A stretch of DNA of 64,000 bases, taken from the NCBI RefSeq assembly GCF_036507355.1, contig NZ_AP027877.1; one strand, given 5' to 3'. Positions 10,078-58,849 of the stretch are shown piece after piece; position 1 is the first letter of the stretch; each line of letters opens with the position of its first letter. Source of the DNA: Escherichia coli (GTDB taxonomy: Bacteria > Pseudomonadota > Gammaproteobacteria > Enterobacterales > Enterobacteriaceae). A model generated the notes under the pieces. The model had not been told where the DNA came from and ran no database searches. It saw only the letters and a list, made by a program, of their open reading frames with translations. A program made the translations under genes and the position numbers.

Positions 10078-11499
10078 ATGATGAGCAAAATAAACCAAAC
10101 GGATATCGATCGGTTGATTGAACTGGTCGGCGGGCGCGGCAATATTGCGACGGTGAGCCACTGTATTACTCGCCTGCGCTTTGTCCTCAACCAACCGGCC
10201 AATGCCAGACCGAAAGAAATTGAGCAACTCCCCATGGTGAAAGGCTGTTTCACCAATGCCGGGCAATTTCAGGTGGTGATTGGCACCAATGTGGGTGATT
10301 ACTATCAAGCACTGATTGCGTCAACCGGACAGGCGCAGGTTGATAAAGAGCAGGTAAAAAAAGCCGCCCGGCAGAATATGAAATGGCATGAGCAGTTGAT
10401 CTCTCATTTCGCGGAGATCTTCTTCCCGCTGCTGCCCGCGTTGATTAGCGGCGGTTTGATCCTCGGTTTTCGCAATGTGATCGGCGATTTGCCCATGAGC
10501 AACGGTCAGACGCTGGCGCAAATGTACCCTTCCCTGCAAACGATCTACGATTTTCTATGGTTGATCGGTGAAGCGATCTTCTTCTACCTGCCGGTCGGGA
10601 TTTGCTGGTCAGCGGTGAAAAAAATGGGCGGCACGCCGATCCTTGGTATCGTGCTTGGCGTGACACTGGTTTCTCCACAGCTGATGAACGCTTATCTGCT
10701 CGGGCAGCAGCTGCCGGAAGTGTGGGACTTTGGCATGTTCAGCATCGCCAAAGTAGGCTATCAGGCGCAGGTGATCCCGGCACTGTTAGCCGGGCTGGCG
10801 CTGGGCGTTATTGAAACTCGCCTTAAACGCATCGTGCCGGATTACCTCTATCTGGTGGTGGTGCCCGTCTGTTCGCTGATCCTCGCGGTGTTCCTCGCCC
10901 ATGCGCTGATTGGTCCGTTTGGTCGCATGATTGGCGATGGCGTTGCCTTTGCGGTACGTCACCTGATGACCGGCAGCTTTGCTCCGATTGGCGCAGCATT
11001 GTTTGGCTTCCTGTACGCCCCGCTGGTGATCACCGGGGTACACCAGACCACGCTTGCTATTGATTTGCAGATGATTCAAAGCATGGGTGGTACGCCAGTG
11101 TGGCCGCTGATTGCGCTGTCGAATATCGCTCAGGGCTCCGCCGTGATAGGCATTATCATTTCCAGCCGCAAGCACAATGAACGCGAGATCTCCGTGCCTG
11201 CCGCTATCTCCGCCTGGCTTGGGGTCACTGAGCCTGCAATGTACGGCATCAACCTGAAATATCGCTTCCCGATGCTGTGCGCGATGATTGGTTCTGGTCT
11301 GGCAGGATTGCTATGCGGCCTGAACGGCGTTATGGCGAATGGCATCGGCGTAGGCGGCCTGCCGGGAATTCTCTCGATTCAACCGAGCTACTGGCAGGTG
11401 TTTGCGCTGGCAATGGCTATCGCCATCATCATCCCGATTGTACTCACCTCGTTTATCTATCAGCGGAAATACCGCCTGGGCACGCTGGACATTGTTTAA
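10078..11499 (+). CDS. treB: PTS trehalose-specific EIIBC component
   Basis: 473-aa ORF; EIIB cysteine motif (HCITRLRF) then polytopic membrane domain. Confidence 0.95.
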   Translation: MMSKINQTDIDRLIELVGGRGNIATVSHCITRLRFVLNQPANARPKEIEQLPMVKGCFTNAGQFQVVIGTNVGDYYQALIASTGQAQVDKEQVKKAARQNMKWHEQLISHFAEIFFPLLPALISGGLILGFRNVIGDLPMSNGQTLAQMYPSLQTIYDFLWLIGEAIFFYLPVGICWSAVKKMGGTPILGIVLGVTLVSPQLMNAYLLGQQLPEVWDFGMFSIAKVGYQAQVIPALLAGLALGVIETRLKRIVPDYLYLVVVPVCSLILAVFLAHALIGPFGRMIGDGVAFAVRHLMTGSFAPIGAALFGFLYAPLVITGVHQTTLAIDLQMIQSMGGTPVWPLIALSNIAQGSAVIGIIISSRKHNEREISVPAAISAWLGVTEPAMYGINLKYRFPMLCAMIGSGLAGLLCGLNGVMANGIGVGGLPGILSIQPSYWQVFALAMAIAIIIPIVLTSFIYQRKYRLGTLDIV

Positions 11500-23722: not shown

Positions 23723-25235
23723 TTACGCCGCAATGGCGTTCATGATCGCCGGAACGGAAAGCTGTGCCAGCGGGATCTCCGCCACCTGTTTGCGATCGCG
23801 CATGATGATCACCCGGTCGGCATAGCCCACCAGCTCTTCCAGTTCGGAGGAGATCACCAGCAGCGCCAGACCGTCAGCACACAGCGTTTCAATCAGGCGG
23901 ATGATCTCGGCGTGGGCACCAACATCAATGCCACGGGTTGGCTCATCAAGGATCAGAAATTGCGGTCGGGTTAGTAGCCAACGTGAAAGCAGCACTTTTT
24001 GCTGATTGCCACCGGAGAGAAATTCAATCGGTTGTTCAGTTGAAGGTGTGCGAATGCCAAGCTGGCGGATAAAGCGTTCGGCAATCTCTTGCTGCTCTTT
24101 GCGGGAAATGGGTCGTAGCCAGCCGCGCTGGGCCTGGAGAGCGAGGATGATATTTTCCCGCACCGAGGCGGCGGCGATGATGCCATCGGTTTTCCTGTCT
24201 TCCGGGCAGAATCCGATGCCCAGTACTGAAGCCTGATGTGGCGATCGCAGGGTTTGCGGTTTGCCTTTGATCAACGCCGTGCCGCTGTCAGCAGGTTTGA
24301 TACCGAAGATCACTTCGGCGGTTTCGGTACGTCCGGATCCCAGCAAGCCAGCCAGACCGACGATCTCGCCGGGGTGCACTTCGAGATCAAACGGTGCTAT
24401 CGTTCCTTTTTTGCCGTAATTTTTGAACGCGGCAACGGGTTTGTCGCTCAACAATGTTCGCCCGGCACGCTGTAGCGCGTGGGTATCCAGCTCGCGCCCC
24501 AGCATCATTTTTACCAGTTCGATCTGCGGTAGCTCGCGCGTTTCCCGACAGCCTACGAAACTGCCGTTGCGTAAGACGGTGATCCGATCGCTGACCTGAT
24601 AGACCTGATCGAGAAAGTGAGTGACAAAGATCAGGCTGACGCCGCGATCGCGCAACTGACGCATCAGGCCAAATAATAGCTCCACTTCCTGGGTGTCGAG
24701 GCTGGCGGTGGGTTCATCGAGGATCAGCACTTTGGCGGAGAGATCGATAGCCCGGCAAATGGCGACGATTTGCTGCATCGCCACCGAAAAACGGTTAAGC
24801 GGTTCGCGCACGTCGAGGGAGAAACCGTAAGATGCCATCAGTTCGGTGGCGCGCTTTTCCATCTCTTTACGGCGTAGAAGGCCGAAACGTTTGGGTTCGC
24901 GACCTATGAATAGATTATCAGCAACCGACATATTGGGTAGCAGGTTGACTTCCTGATAGACGGTGCCGATACCGAGTTGTTGTGCATGGGCGGTATTTTT
25001 CGGTGAGATAGCCTGGCCTTCCAGCCAGATGGTGCCGCGATCGGCGTGGTATACACCAGTTAATGCTTTGATTAGCTTTGATTAGCGTTGATTTTCCCGC
25101 CCCGTTTTCACCAAGCAGCGCCATGATTTCGCCACGGCGCAGGCTGAAATCAACGTTGTCTAACGCTTTGACGCCGGGGAAAAATTTACTTAATCCTTCG
25201 GTGCGGAGGATCTCCTGGTGTTGGTCGGTCGTCAT
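23723..25235 (-). pseudogene. ytfR: ytfR (galactofuranose ABC transporter ATPase, two NBDs) inactivated by a +10-bp frameshift
   Basis: ORF track splits it into 24918..25235 (first 54 residues through Walker [14 protein letters not shown], then out-of-frame tail) and 23723..24931 (remainder, [16 protein letters not shown]...). Span is 1513 bp versus 1503 bp expected for the 500-aa K-12 protein (from memory). Confidence 0.85.
25066..25085. repeat. Perfect 10-bp tandem duplication (CTTTGATTAG x2) causing the ytfR frameshift
   Basis: Plus strand reads taatg-CTTTGATTAG-CTTTGATTAG-cgttgatttt; a degenerate third copy follows. Confidence 0.9.
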
Positions 25236-36523: not shown

Positions 36524-37078
36524 ATGACCCTACGCAAGATTCTGGCACTCACCTGCCTGCTGTTGCCGATGATGGCTTCCGCACATCAGTTCGAAACCGG
36601 TCAGCGAGTGCCGCCGATTGGCATTACCGATCGGGGCGAGTTGGTGCTTGATAAAGATCAGTTTAGCTACAAAACCTGGAACAGCGCGCAGTTAGTGGGA
36701 AAAGTGCGAGTACTGCAACATATTGCTGGTCGCACCTCTGCAAAAGAGAAAAACGCGACGCTGATTGAAGCGATTAAATCAGCGAAGTTACCGCACGATC
36801 GTTACCAGACCACCACCATTGTTAACACCGACGACGCGATTCCGGGTTCCGGCATGTTTGTGCGCAGCAGTCTGGAGAGTAATAAAAAGCTTTATCCCTG
36901 GTCGCAGTTTATTGTCGATAGCAATGGCGTCGCGCGCGGTGCCTGGCAGCTGGATGAAGAAAGTTCTGCTGTAGTGGTGCTGGATAAGGATGGTCGCGTG
37001 CAATGGGCCAAAGACGGGGCGCTCACACCGGAAGAGGTGCAGCAAGTGATGGACCTGCTGCAAAAGTTGCTCAAATAA
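36524..37078 (+). CDS. ytfJ: Periplasmic protein YtfJ
   Basis: 184-aa ORF with signal peptide (MTLRKILALTCLLLPMMASA). Confidence 0.9.
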   Translation: MTLRKILALTCLLLPMMASAHQFETGQRVPPIGITDRGELVLDKDQFSYKTWNSAQLVGKVRVLQHIAGRTSAKEKNATLIEAIKSAKLPHDRYQTTTIVNTDDAIPGSGMFVRSSLESNKKLYPWSQFIVDSNGVARGAWQLDEESSAVVVLDKDGRVQWAKDGALTPEEVQQVMDLLQKLLK

Positions 37079-37111
37079 TGGCAATAACATAAATTCTGCA
37101 AAAATAATTTT

Positions 37112-37138
37112 CCCCTATCGTTATCTATGGGATAGGGG
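37112..37138. terminator. Bidirectional hairpin between convergent ytfJ and ytfI
   Basis: CCCCTATC-N11-GATAGGGG inverted repeat flanked by A/T runs. Confidence 0.6.
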
Positions 37139-37167
37139 AATTAAGTCTCTGAGTTCTTACGCCGAAC

Positions 37168-52167: not shown

Positions 52168-52847
52168 TTACTTCTGCCCGTAATAAGCGTTGGGACCGTG
52201 CTTACGCATGAAGTGTTTATTCATCAGGTAGCTGTCGATGTGATTGAGTTGTGGGTTAATGCCGCGGGCAATCCACGCCATTTTCGCCACTTCTTCCATC
52301 ACCACCGCGTTATGCACCGCATCGTGAGCATCTTTCCCCCAGGCGAACGGCCCGTGCTGATACACCACAATTCCCGGCGTATGCAGCGGCTCGGCGTTGC
52401 CCAGCGTTTCGATAATCACTTTGCCGGTGTTCAGTTCATACTCGCCCTGCACCTCTTCTTCGCTTAACCCGCGCGTACACGGAATGTCGCCAAAGAAGTA
52501 GTCGGCGTGCGTGGTGCCTAACGCCGGGATCGCCAGCCCCGCCTGCGCCCATGCGGTAGCATGAGTTGAGTGGGTATGGACAATGCCGCCAAGCGACGGG
52601 TAACGACGGTAGAGTTCAAGATGCGTCGCGGTGTCGGAAGACGGACGATATTCCCCTTCCACCACCTTACCGCTCATATCGACCACCACCATATCGTCTG
52701 CTTTCATGGGGCGACGCCGCTGGGCTTGATCACCACCAGCCCGCGTTCGCGGTCGATAGCGCTGACGTTGCCCCAAGTAAAGGTCACCAGCCCATAGCGC
52801 GGCAGATCCATGTTGGCTTCAAACACCTGCTGTTTTAGCTTTTGCAT
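52168..52847 (-). pseudogene. ulaF: ulaF (L-ribulose-5-phosphate 4-epimerase) inactivated by a ~7-bp deletion frameshift
   Basis: ORF track splits it into 52704..52895 (residues 1-46, ...VIKPSGVA then P*) and 52168..52776 (...[18 protein letters not shown]... to C-terminus); the expected YET tripeptide between them is missing. Span is 680 bp versus 687 bp expected. Confidence 0.85.
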
Positions 52848-53701
52848 TATGCCGCCTCCACCATGCCCGCTTTCGCCATGCGCGCTTTCACCCAATCACG
52901 CGCTTTCGCCACTTCTGCCGCCGGGTCTTCCGCCGTTTCGCTCCACATCTCAATCAGGTATGGCCCGCAATAGCCACTCTGTTTGAGCGTTTCGAAACAA
53001 CGTTCGAAATCCACTACACCTTCGCCAAACGGCACGTTTTTGAAGACGCCCGGTTTGGTGTCTTTCACATGCACCGCGACGATATGCCCGATTCCGGCCT
53101 GCAACTCCATCTGCACGTCGTTATCCCACGCCGACAGGTTGCCGATATCCGGGTAGAGCTGGAACCACGGATTGTTGAGATAGTGCGCGTAGCCCAGCGC
53201 CTTGCTGATGGAGTTCATCAACGGATAATCCATGATCTCCATCGCCAGCGTCACCTGCGCGCGGCTTGCCATCTCAACGCTCTCTTTCAGGCCGTCACGG
53301 AAACGACGACGCGTTTCGTTATTGGCTTCCTGATAGTAAACGTCATAGCCCGCCAGCTGGATCACGCGAATACCGACATCCTGGGCGAACTGGATAGCTT
53401 TACGCATAATCTCCAGCCCCTGCGCCCGCACCGCGTCATCTTCACTGCCCAGCGGGAAACGACGATGAGCAGAAAGGCACATGGACGGCACGCGCACGCC
53501 GGTTTCAACAATCGCATTGACCAGCGCCAGACGCTGCTCGCGGCTCCAGTCGAGGCGCGACAGGCGCTCGTCCGTTTCATCTACCGACATCTCGACAAAA
53601 TCGAAGCCCAACGTTTTTGCCAGTTGCAGGCGTTCCAGCCAGCACTCCCCGGCGGGGAGCGCTTTTTCATAGATGCCAAGCGGGATTTGTTTGGACAACA
53701 T
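52847..53701 (-). CDS. ulaE: L-ribulose-5-phosphate 3-epimerase
   Basis: 284-aa ORF; stop overlaps ulaF ATG by 1 nt. Confidence 0.95.
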
Positions 53702-53710
53702 ATCCGCTCC

Positions 53711-54361
53711 TTAGCCCCACAGTTCAGCGATGGAACGTTTGAACTGACGTGCGGCTTCCACCGGAGAAGCGGCATCACGGATACTACGGCCCGCGATAAA
53801 GACGTGAATCGGAATGCCTTTGAACAGCGGCAGATCTTCCAGCGCCAGGCCTCCGGTGACGGTGACTTTGAAGCCCATATCGGAAAGACGTTTGATCGCG
53901 GTGATGTCCGCTTCGCCCCACGCCACGCCTGCGGCCTGCGCGTCACGGCTGCGGTGATAAACCACCTGCTGAATGCCTGCATCGCGCCACTGTTGCGCCT
54001 GTTCCCAGGTCCAGTAACCGGTCAGTTCGATCTGCACGTCGCCGTTAAACTCTTTTGCCACGTCCAGCGCGCCTTTGGCGGTGTTGATATCCGCACAGCA
54101 AATTACCGTCACCCAGTCAGCGTTGGCTTCGAAGCACATACGCGAAAGGATTTTGCCTGCATCGGCAATTTTGGCGTCTGCCAGTACGATTTTGTGCGGG
54201 TAGAGCGCTTTCAGGTCACGAACCGCACGCACGCCTTCGCCCACGCACAGAATGGTGCCCACTTCGATAATGTCGACTTCTTCGGCAATCAGGCGAGTGG
54301 TTTCGTAGGCGCTATCCATAGTCTGGTTGTCCAGCGCGACTTGCAACATCGGTAATGACAT
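53711..54361 (-). CDS. ulaD: 3-keto-L-gulonate-6-phosphate decarboxylase
   Basis: 216 aa from internal ATG ([20 protein letters not shown]). Confidence 0.95.
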
Positions 54362-54374
54362 GTTCAATTCCTTC

Positions 54375-54839
54375 TTAAGCTGCCGCGTTGGTGCGGTCAA
54401 TGAGATCCAGTACTTCCTGCTCGGTACGGCAGGCGCGTAAACGGTCAAAATTCTCTTCATCTTCAAACAGGTTGACGATCTGCATGATACCCACTTCCTG
54501 GTGAGTATTGGCATCGACCGCCGCCATGGTGATGAGGATATCCACCGGATCGTTGTCGTCGTGGTTAAATTCCAGCGGCTTTTTCAGCGTTACCAGAGAG
54601 AAACCGGTTTTCTTAACACCCTCTTCCGGCCGCCCGTGCGGCATCGCCAGCCCCGGAGCGATAACGAAATAAGGGCCAAACTGTTCCACGCCATCCAGAA
54701 TCGCCTGGTAATAGCGCGGCTCGACAACGTCCGCCGCCACCAGCAGATCGACGCCGATTTTCACCGCGTCCTGCCAGGTTTCAGCTTCAGCCTGCAGGCG
54801 GATGGATTTATTTACAGCCAGCGAATCACGTAATTTCAT
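54375..54839 (-). CDS. ulaC: PTS ascorbate-specific EIIA component
   Basis: 154-aa ORF. Confidence 0.95.
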
Positions 54840-54848
54840 GGCGCGTCC

Positions 54849-55154
54849 TTACTTCACGTCCTGCGGGAAATGCTCTTTGATCACTTCCAGCAGTTTCGGG
54901 CCAAAGTCGGCAGGAGAGAGCATGTTGCGCACGCCAACCACGTATTTGTTGCCGGTCACGGTGATTTCGCCCGCAATGTGCGTAGAAGCGATGATGATAT
55001 CCGCGCCACTCAACTCGCTTTTGTACTCGCCAACCGCGCAGCTGTTTACCGTATGGTCAATGTTTGATTGGGTTAAAAACTGGTCCACTTTCATCTTCAT
55101 GATCATGGAACTGCCTTGTCCGTTGCCACACACAGCCAGAATACGTACGGTCAT
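54849..55154 (-). CDS. ulaB: PTS ascorbate-specific EIIB component
   Basis: 101 aa from internal ATG ([16 protein letters not shown]), phospho-Cys motif. Confidence 0.95.
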
Positions 55155-55169
55155 AATCAAAACTCCTTA

Positions 55170-56921
<1,752 letters not shown>

Positions 56922-57986
56922 ATGAGTAAAGTGAAAAGTATCACCCGTGAATCCTGGATCCTGAGCACTTTCCCGGAGTGGGGTAGCTGGTTGAATGAAG
57001 AAATTGAACAAGAACAGGTCGCTCCTGGCACATTTGCGATGTGGTGGCTTGGCTGCACCGGGATCTGGTTGAAATCGGAAGGTGGCACCAACGTTTGCGT
57101 TGATTTCTGGTGCGGCACTGGCAAACAAAGTCACGGTAACCCGTTAATGAAACAGGGTCACCAGATGCAGCGCATGGCTGGCGTGAAAAAACTGCAGCCA
57201 AACCTGCGTACCACCCCGTTTGTTCTTGATCCGTTTGCGATTCGCCAGATCGACGCGGTACTGGCGACTCACGATCACAACGATCATATCGACGTTAACG
57301 TCGCTGCTGCCGTGATGCAGAACTGTGCTGATGACGTACCGTTTATCGGACCGAAAACCTGTGTGGATTTGTGGATTGGCTGGGGCGTACCGAAAGAGCG
57401 TTGCATCGTGGTCAAACCGGGCGATGTAGTAAAAGTGAAAGACATTGAAATTCATGCGCTTGATGCTTTCGACCGTACTGCACTGATCACCCTGCCTGCC
57501 GATCAAAAAGCGGCTGGCGTACTGCCAGATGGCATGGACGATCGCGCGGTGAACTACCTGTTCAAAACGCCTGGCGGCTCCCTGTATCACAGCGGCGACT
57601 CCCACTACTCTAACTATTATGCGAAGCACGGTAACGAACATCAGATCGACGTGGCGTTAGGATCGTACGGCGAAAACCCGCGCGGTATCACCGACAAAAT
57701 GACCAGCGCCGATATGCTGCGTATGGGTGAAGCGCTGAATGCGAAAGTGGTTATCCCGTTCCACCACGATATCTGGTCAAACTTCCAGGCCGATCCGCAA
57801 GAGATCCGCGTGCTGTGGGAGATGAAAAAAGATCGCCTGAAGTATGGCTTCAAGCCGTTTATCTGGCAGGTGGGCGGCAAATTTACCTGGCCGCTGGATA
57901 AAGACAACTTCGAGTACCACTATCCGCGCGGTTTCGATGATTGCTTCACTATTGAACCGGATCTGCCGTTCAAGTCATTCCTGTAA
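56922..57986 (+). CDS. ulaG: L-ascorbate-6-phosphate lactonase (metallo-beta-lactamase fold)
   Basis: 354 aa from [14 protein letters not shown]; HxHxDH motif ([11 protein letters not shown]). Confidence 0.95.
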
Positions 57987-58093: not shown

Positions 58094-58849
58094 ATGACTG
58101 AAGCACAAAGACATCAAATCCTCCTGGAAATGCTCGCACAATTGGGCTTTGTGACCGTTGAGAAAGTCGTTGAGCGTCTGGGAATTTCGCCTGCCACTGC
58201 GCGACGCGATATCAATAAACTTGACGAAAGCGGCAAACTGAAAAAAGTGCGCAATGGCGCAGAAGCTATTACCCAACAGCGCCCGCGCTGGACGCCGATG
58301 AATCTGCATCAGGCGCAGAATCACGATGAAAAAGTACGTATCGCTAAAGCGGCCTCGCAGCTGGTTAATCCGGGCGAAAGCGTAGTCATCAACTGCGGCT
58401 CCACCGCGTTTCTGCTTGGGCGGGAAATGTGTGGCAAGCCAGTGCAAATCATCACTAATTATCTACCGCTGGCAAATTACCTGATCGATCAAGAACATGA
58501 CAGCGTGATCATTATGGGCGGACAGTACAACAAAAGTCAGTCCATCACTTTAAGCCCGCAGGGCAGCGAAAACAGTCTCTATGCCGGGCACTGGATGTTT
58601 ACCAGCGGAAAAGGGCTGACCGCAGAAGGGTTGTATAAAACCGATATGCTGACAGCAATGGCAGAGCAGAAGATGCTGAGCGTGGTAGGGAAACTGGTGG
58701 TACTGGTTGATAGCAGTAAGATTGGCGAACGCGCGGGAATGCTTTTTAGCCGTGCCGATCAAATCGATATGCTTATCACCGGCAAAAATGCTAACCCGGA
58801 AATCCTGCAACAACTGGAAGCGCAAGGGGTCAGCATTCTGCGTGTTTAA
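58094..58849 (+). CDS. ulaR: DeoR-family repressor of the ula regulon
   Basis: 251-aa ORF with N-terminal HTH. Confidence 0.95.

Follow-up and report, generated by a model that had tools for sequence, protein, structure and literature searches.

A rare 7-bp deletion splits ulaF into two reading frames within an otherwise intact ula regulon of Escherichia coli

In a 64,000-nucleotide stretch of an Escherichia coli genome (here referred to as the window), ulaF, the last gene of the ulaABCDEF operon, has lost seven bases and shifts frame after codon 46. The deleted allele is present in independent assemblies, is rare among sequenced genomes and lies beside intact neighbouring genes. We consider it to be a genuine, recent and lineage-specific loss-of-function allele (probability of roughly 0.88), with the loss of enzyme activity and the metabolic phenotype being what we would predict from the lesion. 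The locus comprises the following features.

52168–52847, minus strand: ulaF pseudogene, 680 nt compared with 687 nt in intact alleles
52709–52710, minus strand: deletion junction; TACGAAA (ulaF nucleotides 139–145) is absent between these two bases
52704–52847, minus strand: ORF1, 47 codons plus TGA; UlaF residues 1–46 plus a proline (GVA-Pro-TGA)
52168–52707, minus strand: ORF2, 179 codons plus TAA; UlaF M50–K228

Read 5′ to 3′ on the minus strand, the gene (52847–52168) opens with ATGCAAAAGCTAAAACAG, and its start overlaps the stop of ulaE. End-to-end alignment with the annotated ulaF of strain 100416 gave three mismatches and one 7-bp gap, and when strain 100416, the K-12 derivative EV36 and O157:H7 are aligned, the sole indel is the same seven-column gap, TACGAAA between GCC and CCATGAAAGC. 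When the genes are compared one by one with those of strain 100416, the gap falls at ulaF nucleotides 139–145, and the shifted frame meets its first stop at codon 48. The loss takes out codons 47 (TAC) and 48 (GAA) together with the first base of codon 49 (ACC). Where intact alleles read GCC TAC GAA ACC ATG AAA GCA, the deleted allele joins GCC to CCATG, and the frame runs AGC GGC GTC GCC CCA TGA AAG CAG ACG; across the junction the deleted allele is GCCCCATG and its intact counterpart is GCCTACGAAACCATG. In place of an uninterrupted frame of about 228 codons, the window gene stops after 47, and putting TACGAAA back in silico restores the 228-aa UlaF. Residues 1–46 are 100% identical and residues 50–228 are 99.4% identical to an intact allele, with Y47, E48 and T49 gone. 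An earlier, sequence-only reading of this DNA had described a net loss of 7 bp within 52690–52730 that reduces three codons to ‘cc’, leaves residues 1–46 native and leads at once to TGA. Alignment bears out every element of that description, with the junction falling between 52710 and 52709. The difference from orthologues is deterministic, and chance plays no part in it. The comparison with K-12 that it had proposed gives the same answer, as EV36 carries TACGAAA and the window does not. Judged by its reading frame, the window gene is best classed as a pseudogene of the UlaF family and not as a functional member.

The identity of the gene is supported by its neighbourhood and by protein family models. 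From bdcR to yjfM the window follows the annotated gene order of E. coli, which here runs rpsF–yjfY, ulaFEDCBA and ulaG–ulaR–yjfP; in the collinear annotated RefSeq loci, ulaF is the last gene of ulaABCDEF, overlaps the stop of ulaE and is followed by yjfY. The top NCBIfam model for the intact orthologue is NF009003 (509 bits, cut-off of 331). The AraD model NF006047 follows with 385.6 bits, and the related 4-epimerase subfamily model NF009002 with 367.6 bits, short of the 386 that NF009002 requires. ORF2 alone scores 396.5 bits against positions 50–228 of NF009003, which is above the cut-off of 331, and ORF1 scores 90 bits against model positions 1–46; PF00596 (Aldolase_II) is assigned to both ORFs in public gene calls. 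Synteny with the annotated RefSeq loci and the best-scoring model thus agree with the earlier naming of the gene as ulaF, and collinearity with those loci confirms its distal place in the operon. Compared with E. coli K-12 UlaF (SgaE), an L-ribulose-5-phosphate 4-epimerase, the window allele has the same locus, the same neighbours, the same ulaE/ulaF overlap and the same NF009003 assignment, but is split by the 7-bp deletion into ORFs of 47 and 179 aa.

The junction recurs in other assemblies. Both the NCBI draft assembly GCA_905398585.1 (contigs L006 and L009) and the Logan assembly of SRR31122001 (contig L008) share this junction and match the window at 100% identity across the 1 kb that surrounds the lesion, and the ENA metagenome contig ERZ926208 (L007) also has the 7-bp junction. 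The 47-aa ORF1 was found on 7 contigs, one of them 4,643,937 bp in length, and its product is identical to GenBank BED24090.1, ‘hypothetical protein [Escherichia coli]’, the sole named record for ORF1. Scattered differences from the window (4 in 14.1 kb for L006/L009 and 8 in 20.5 kb for L008) identify these as separate isolates of one lineage, and the deletion is therefore older than their split.

Seven additional public contigs (L010–L016), from different samples, start 0–2 nt before the ATG of ORF2 (window-equivalent positions 52707–52709), and their haplotypes are 17–22 mismatches from the window. One of them, L013, shows other gaps, each of 1 bp, and seems to be an assembly of low quality. 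We rejected this group as evidence for the deletion; the common starts most likely arise because exact-protein look-up selects for gene calls at contig edges, or may alternatively reflect assembly-graph breaks from mixtures of deleted and intact strains.

Among complete genomes the allele was not encountered. A 71-nt junction query gave a best match of 71/78 (91.0%, reflecting the 7-bp gap) among 5216 matching RefSeq complete E. coli genomes, so that none of the 5216 matching genomes, out of 5426 (210 were without a megablast match), has the deletion, and a 711-nt ulaF query reached a top identity of 98.6% in the same collection. Scanning JGI metagenome contigs and GTDB species-representative genomes with the degenerate pattern CCAGCGGYGTYGCCCCATGAAAGCRGMCGATATGGT gave no exact match to the junction, and a search of the open-access literature for ulaF/sgaE mutants or pseudogenes in E. 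coli found nothing relevant. The deletion allele is rare and limited to a small clade.

These observations bear on whether the lesion is real, whether it arose once and how it arose. We give almost no credence to a sequencing or assembly artefact that conceals an intact ulaF: it has in its favour just the general point that assembly errors can produce indels, with nothing specific found, whereas a 7-bp loss in non-repetitive, non-homopolymer sequence is atypical of platform error, at least three further assemblies with different accessions and pipelines (NCBI draft, Logan and ENA metagenome) show the very same junction, and the carrier isolates differ from the window by scattered SNPs. The junction in further assemblies excludes sequencing error, one of two findings that the sequence-only reading had named as able to overturn it; the other, that the native gene has the same sequence here, fails because the intact E. 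coli alleles examined all carry TACGAAA. The metagenome contig L007 is less simply accommodated. It differs from the window by 10 mismatches over 523 positions, with no gap, and does so even at the nearest polymorphic sites, 67 and 110 bp either side of the deletion; a single recent origin does not fully explain this haplotype, which may represent a deeper branch, recombination, assembly noise or recurrence. An identical deletion on such a background is what a hot spot for separate losses on different backgrounds would produce, but we hold recurrence to be very unlikely, given that every one of the 5424 matching RefSeq complete genomes is separated from L007 by at least 9 mismatches as well as the 7-bp gap, which leaves L007 nearer to the window allele than to any of them, that several of its differences are found in none of these genomes, as a contig of low coverage or a deeper branch of this lineage would show, and that no sequence feature favours repeated loss of precisely these 7 bp. 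By its sequence, L007 probably belongs to the same lineage, whether it branched off deeper or was poorly assembled.

The mechanism that had been proposed for the loss, slipped-strand mispairing between short ATGAAA direct repeats, did not survive alignment and now seems highly improbable. Intact ulaF holds one ATGAAA, not two; what lies 8 bp upstream is ACGAAA, out of register with a 7-bp loss. Slippage between this imperfect pair predicts GCCTACGAAAGC, and the observed sequence is GCCCCATGAAAGC. The other nearby repeat in the intact gene, CC...CC, has a 9-bp period, and so no repeats bracket the loss and neither period equals it; periods of 8 and 9 bp predict other losses and other products. 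As read from the alignment, the deletion can be placed in one way only, its edges sharing no base (0 bp of microhomology). The ten intact alleles aligned show no ancestral repeat with a 7-bp period, and 71/78 is the closest that any of the 5216 matching RefSeq genomes comes to the junction. The points that would speak for slippage are the 8-bp spacing of ACGAAA and ATGAAA and the ytfR tandem duplication of 10 bp, a real slippage event in another part of the window (see below). By its edges, the loss is instead a simple small deletion without microhomology.

To place the lesion in the enzyme, we aligned UlaF to the AraD crystal-structure sequences 1JDI and 1K0W (E = 3.5e-94). The corresponding residues are distributed over the two ORFs as follows.

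Metal site: AraD D76, H95, H97 and H171; UlaF D74, H93, H95 and H167; encoded in ORF2
Catalytic residues: AraD D120 and Y229; UlaF D118 and Y225; encoded in ORF2
Phosphate pocket: AraD N28, K42 and S44-G45; UlaF N27, K41 and S43-G44; encoded in ORF1

Samuel et al. are said to have reported, in Biochemistry in 2001, that N28 and K42 of AraD bind phosphate, and we take N27, K41 and S43-G44 of UlaF to be phosphate-pocket residues by correspondence with AraD. The metal ligands and the catalytic Asp and Tyr are all still encoded, solely within ORF2, so that the phosphate-pocket and catalytic residues are divided between ORF1 and ORF2 rather than carried on one chain. In AraD, D120 and Y229 are catalytic and the zinc site consists of three histidines (PMC5434028). 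The deleted segment lies directly after the PSG phosphate loop, where an aromatic residue (Y or F) is conserved in AraD and three FucA structures and the length is fixed.

The ATG of native Met50, with which ORF2 begins, overlaps the stop of ORF1 as ATGA (52707–52704), and gene callers in public assemblies treat the locus as two ORFs, with ORF2 as a separate 179-aa gene. Anti-Shine–Dalgarno pairing energies gave no Shine–Dalgarno sequence upstream of ORF2 (−1.7 kcal/mol, compared with −5.7 to −9.3 kcal/mol at six genuine ula start sites). An X XXY YYZ slippery heptamer is absent at the lesion, and the downstream fold is not significant (z = −1.69), with no hairpin at 5–9 nt and the first stable one about 30 nt away. 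Translation from the native Shine–Dalgarno sequence and ATG would stop at the TGA after 47 residues, yielding a peptide that would bear just the N-terminal phosphate-pocket residues N27, K41 and S43-G44, and ORF2 would be reachable only by inefficient termination–reinitiation at the accidental ATGA overlap. From the frameshift and the split of the active-site residues, and because ORF2 has no Shine–Dalgarno sequence and the lesion has neither a heptamer nor significant structure at stimulator distance, we expect that no functional UlaF is made.

The remainder of the ula regulon is undamaged.

52847–53701, minus strand: ulaE, intact (full length, no indel, no private substitution)
53711–54361, minus strand: ulaD, intact
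54375–54839, minus strand: ulaC, intact
54849–55154, minus strand: ulaB, intact
55170–56567, minus strand: ulaA, intact
56568–56921: ulaG–ulaA divergent regulatory region; the ulaA-proximal half equals K-12 (alignment of 11 sequences)
56922–57986, plus strand: ulaG, intact
58094–58849, plus strand: ulaR, intact; DNA 100% identical to the K-12 allele

None of the seven genes (ulaA–E, ulaG and ulaR) is shortened, and none has an indel or a premature stop. Relative to a panel of eight diverse E. coli, they have 0 private nonsynonymous and 2 private synonymous changes, and ulaF has no private substitution besides the deletion. The operon had earlier been described as otherwise intact; this stands for ulaA–E, which are full length and without indels, premature stops or private amino-acid changes. 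Because the rest of the regulon is intact and without lineage-private amino-acid changes, the loss of ulaF looks recent on sequence grounds. The pristine upstream genes would fit continued selection as well, were the pathway still used by way of a paralogue or a leaky allele.

The three isolates that carry the deletion differ among themselves at nine sites, of which two (window positions 56753 and 56885) are in the 354-bp ulaG–ulaA spacer. At both of these the window is ancestral, and it is the sister isolates that have the derived bases; this variation could reflect chance or a regulatory adjustment after the loss of ulaF. A compensatory regulatory mutation in the window itself was rejected, as both spacer sites are ancestral and the ulaA-proximal half equals K-12. 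In a separate case, E. coli TB06053 from freshwater (L020, NZ_CM129847.1), the stretch from ulaR to ulaD has given way to an integrase-associated island, and the annotation shows shortened versions of ulaE and ulaF; the island is another natural route to the loss of the ula pathway.

An allele that remains leaky or functional is unlikely, although two routes to residual activity can be drawn. Termination–reinitiation at the ATGA overlap could make some C-terminal fragment, which would then have to reassemble with the N-terminal one; against this stand the weak pairing upstream of ORF2 (−1.7 kcal/mol) and the placement of phosphate-pocket and catalytic residues on separate chains. Alternatively, tRNA-Pro could slip by −1 on C_CCA_TGA, from CCA to CCC beside a slow stop codon, to give a full-length protein in which Pro replaces Y47-E48-T49. 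A −1 shift at C CCA TGA leads precisely into the downstream UlaF frame; however, the site lacks an X XXY YYZ heptamer, the structure at stimulator distance is not significant (z = −1.69), and the segment lost has the conserved aromatic residue and conserved length after the PSG loop that are seen in AraD and three FucA structures. The pristine state of all remaining ula genes would fit a pathway still in use, but a recent deletion explains it equally well. We therefore retain loss of function as the preferred reading.

In the published pathway, UlaABC together with UlaG, UlaD and UlaE take ascorbate to L-ribulose-5-phosphate, UlaF converts L-ribulose-5-phosphate to D-xylulose-5-phosphate, and YiaQRS (SgbH, SgbU and SgbE) are paralogues of UlaDEF (bioRxiv 10.1101/2020.09.08.288738). 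With UlaF lost, ascorbate would still be imported and converted up to L-ribulose-5-phosphate, because ulaABCDE, ulaG, ulaR and the promoter are intact. Onward metabolism would then hinge on the paralogous epimerases AraD or SgbE, encoded elsewhere; no second ulaF homologue (araD or sgbE) is present within the 64-kb window. Should AraD and SgbE be unexpressed, poor ascorbate fermentation would be expected. The suggestion made from the sequence, that the pathway stalls at L-ribulose-5-phosphate unless AraD or SgbE compensates, is plausible and follows from the published pathway. AraD (1JDI and 1K0W) and SgbE/YiaS share with UlaF the class II aldolase fold family, the conserved metal and catalytic residues and the reaction; unlike ulaF, their genes belong to the ara and yiaK-S operons, respond to different inducers and lie outside the window. 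Build-up of L-ribulose-5-phosphate is toxic in AraD-deficient cells (PMC7269641, citing Englesberg 1962), and by analogy ascorbate might inhibit the strain as arabinose inhibits araD mutants. The classical araD-null, arabinose-sensitive mutants (Englesberg 1962; PMC7269641) likewise lose the 4-epimerase with the upstream steps intact, but here the substrate is ascorbate, the regulon is ula, the phenotype is predicted only and two paralogues could buffer the loss.

The deletion is one of three inactivations in the 64 kb, the others being a 10-bp duplication in ytfR and an IS1 insertion in cpdB. In ytfR (23723–25235, minus strand), which encodes a galactofuranose ABC transporter ATPase, a 10-bp tandem duplication at 25055–25084 places a third GCTTTGATTA unit beside GCTTTGATTA-GCGTTGATTT, shifting the frame so that a stop follows after about 105 of 504 codons. 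This duplication is absent from the RefSeq complete E. coli genomes with a full-length match (best 91/101) and is a true slippage event. In cpdB, an IS1 of 768 bp (39232–39999) is inserted after nucleotide 11 (site 39223–40008), bounded on both sides by the 9-bp target duplication GATTAAGTT, and severs the gene from its own start codon and promoter. The ulaF allele is like the ordinary frameshift and IS pseudogenes of natural E. coli in being a small indel in a dispensable catabolic gene, and differs from them only by the accidental ATGA stop/start overlap at native Met50. A contig of the sister isolate GCA_905398585.1 ends in 78 bp of IS1 (L009 14114–14191, window-equivalent position about 48592) at a point where the window is IS-free; the sister isolate thus has an additional IS1 copy, and IS1 appears to be active in the deletion lineage.

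Over 24 kb, the best RefSeq complete E. coli match is 98.8% identical to the window. Individual genes are 99.5–100% identical to ordinary alleles of different strains (ulaG, 99.8% to O157; ulaE, 99.9% to strains A30 and GDSC2227PM; ulaR, 100% to K-12), which points to a recombinant mosaic and not to an exotic lineage. A Shigella or EIEC origin, suspected from the IS1, the three lesions and the 98.8% identity, is unsupported, the ula genes being a mosaic of ordinary E. coli alleles and the one named record for ORF1 carrying the label E. coli. Elsewhere in the window, an AT-rich segment of 1.2 kb between ytfJ and cysQ (37066–38290) contains a 303-aa ORF on the minus strand (37168–38079), which we take to resemble K-12 ytfI. 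Strain 100416 lacks this ORF, which seems to be a variable accessory gene of an ordinary kind. In strain 100416, treB is frameshifted (L004 14962–16379); the window copy (10081–11499) is intact.

The significance of the finding past strain annotation is small: it is a rare new null allele of a well-known gene and an ordinary pseudogene. In annotation, the 47-aa and 179-aa ‘hypothetical’ ORFs should be merged as one ulaF pseudogene, and the 7-bp junction GTCGCCCCATGAAAG serves as a diagnostic marker of a small E. coli clade. Were the allele leaky after all, the lineage would keep a throttled Ula pathway, which would explain the undecayed ulaA–E, ulaG and ulaR. Under the preferred reading of lost function, the allele predicts a testable defect, namely poor anaerobic fermentation of ascorbate, perhaps accompanied by an inhibitory effect of ascorbate as L-ribulose-5-phosphate builds up, provided that neither AraD nor SgbE steps in. 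It also offers a natural test of how far three paralogous 4-epimerases can substitute for one another.
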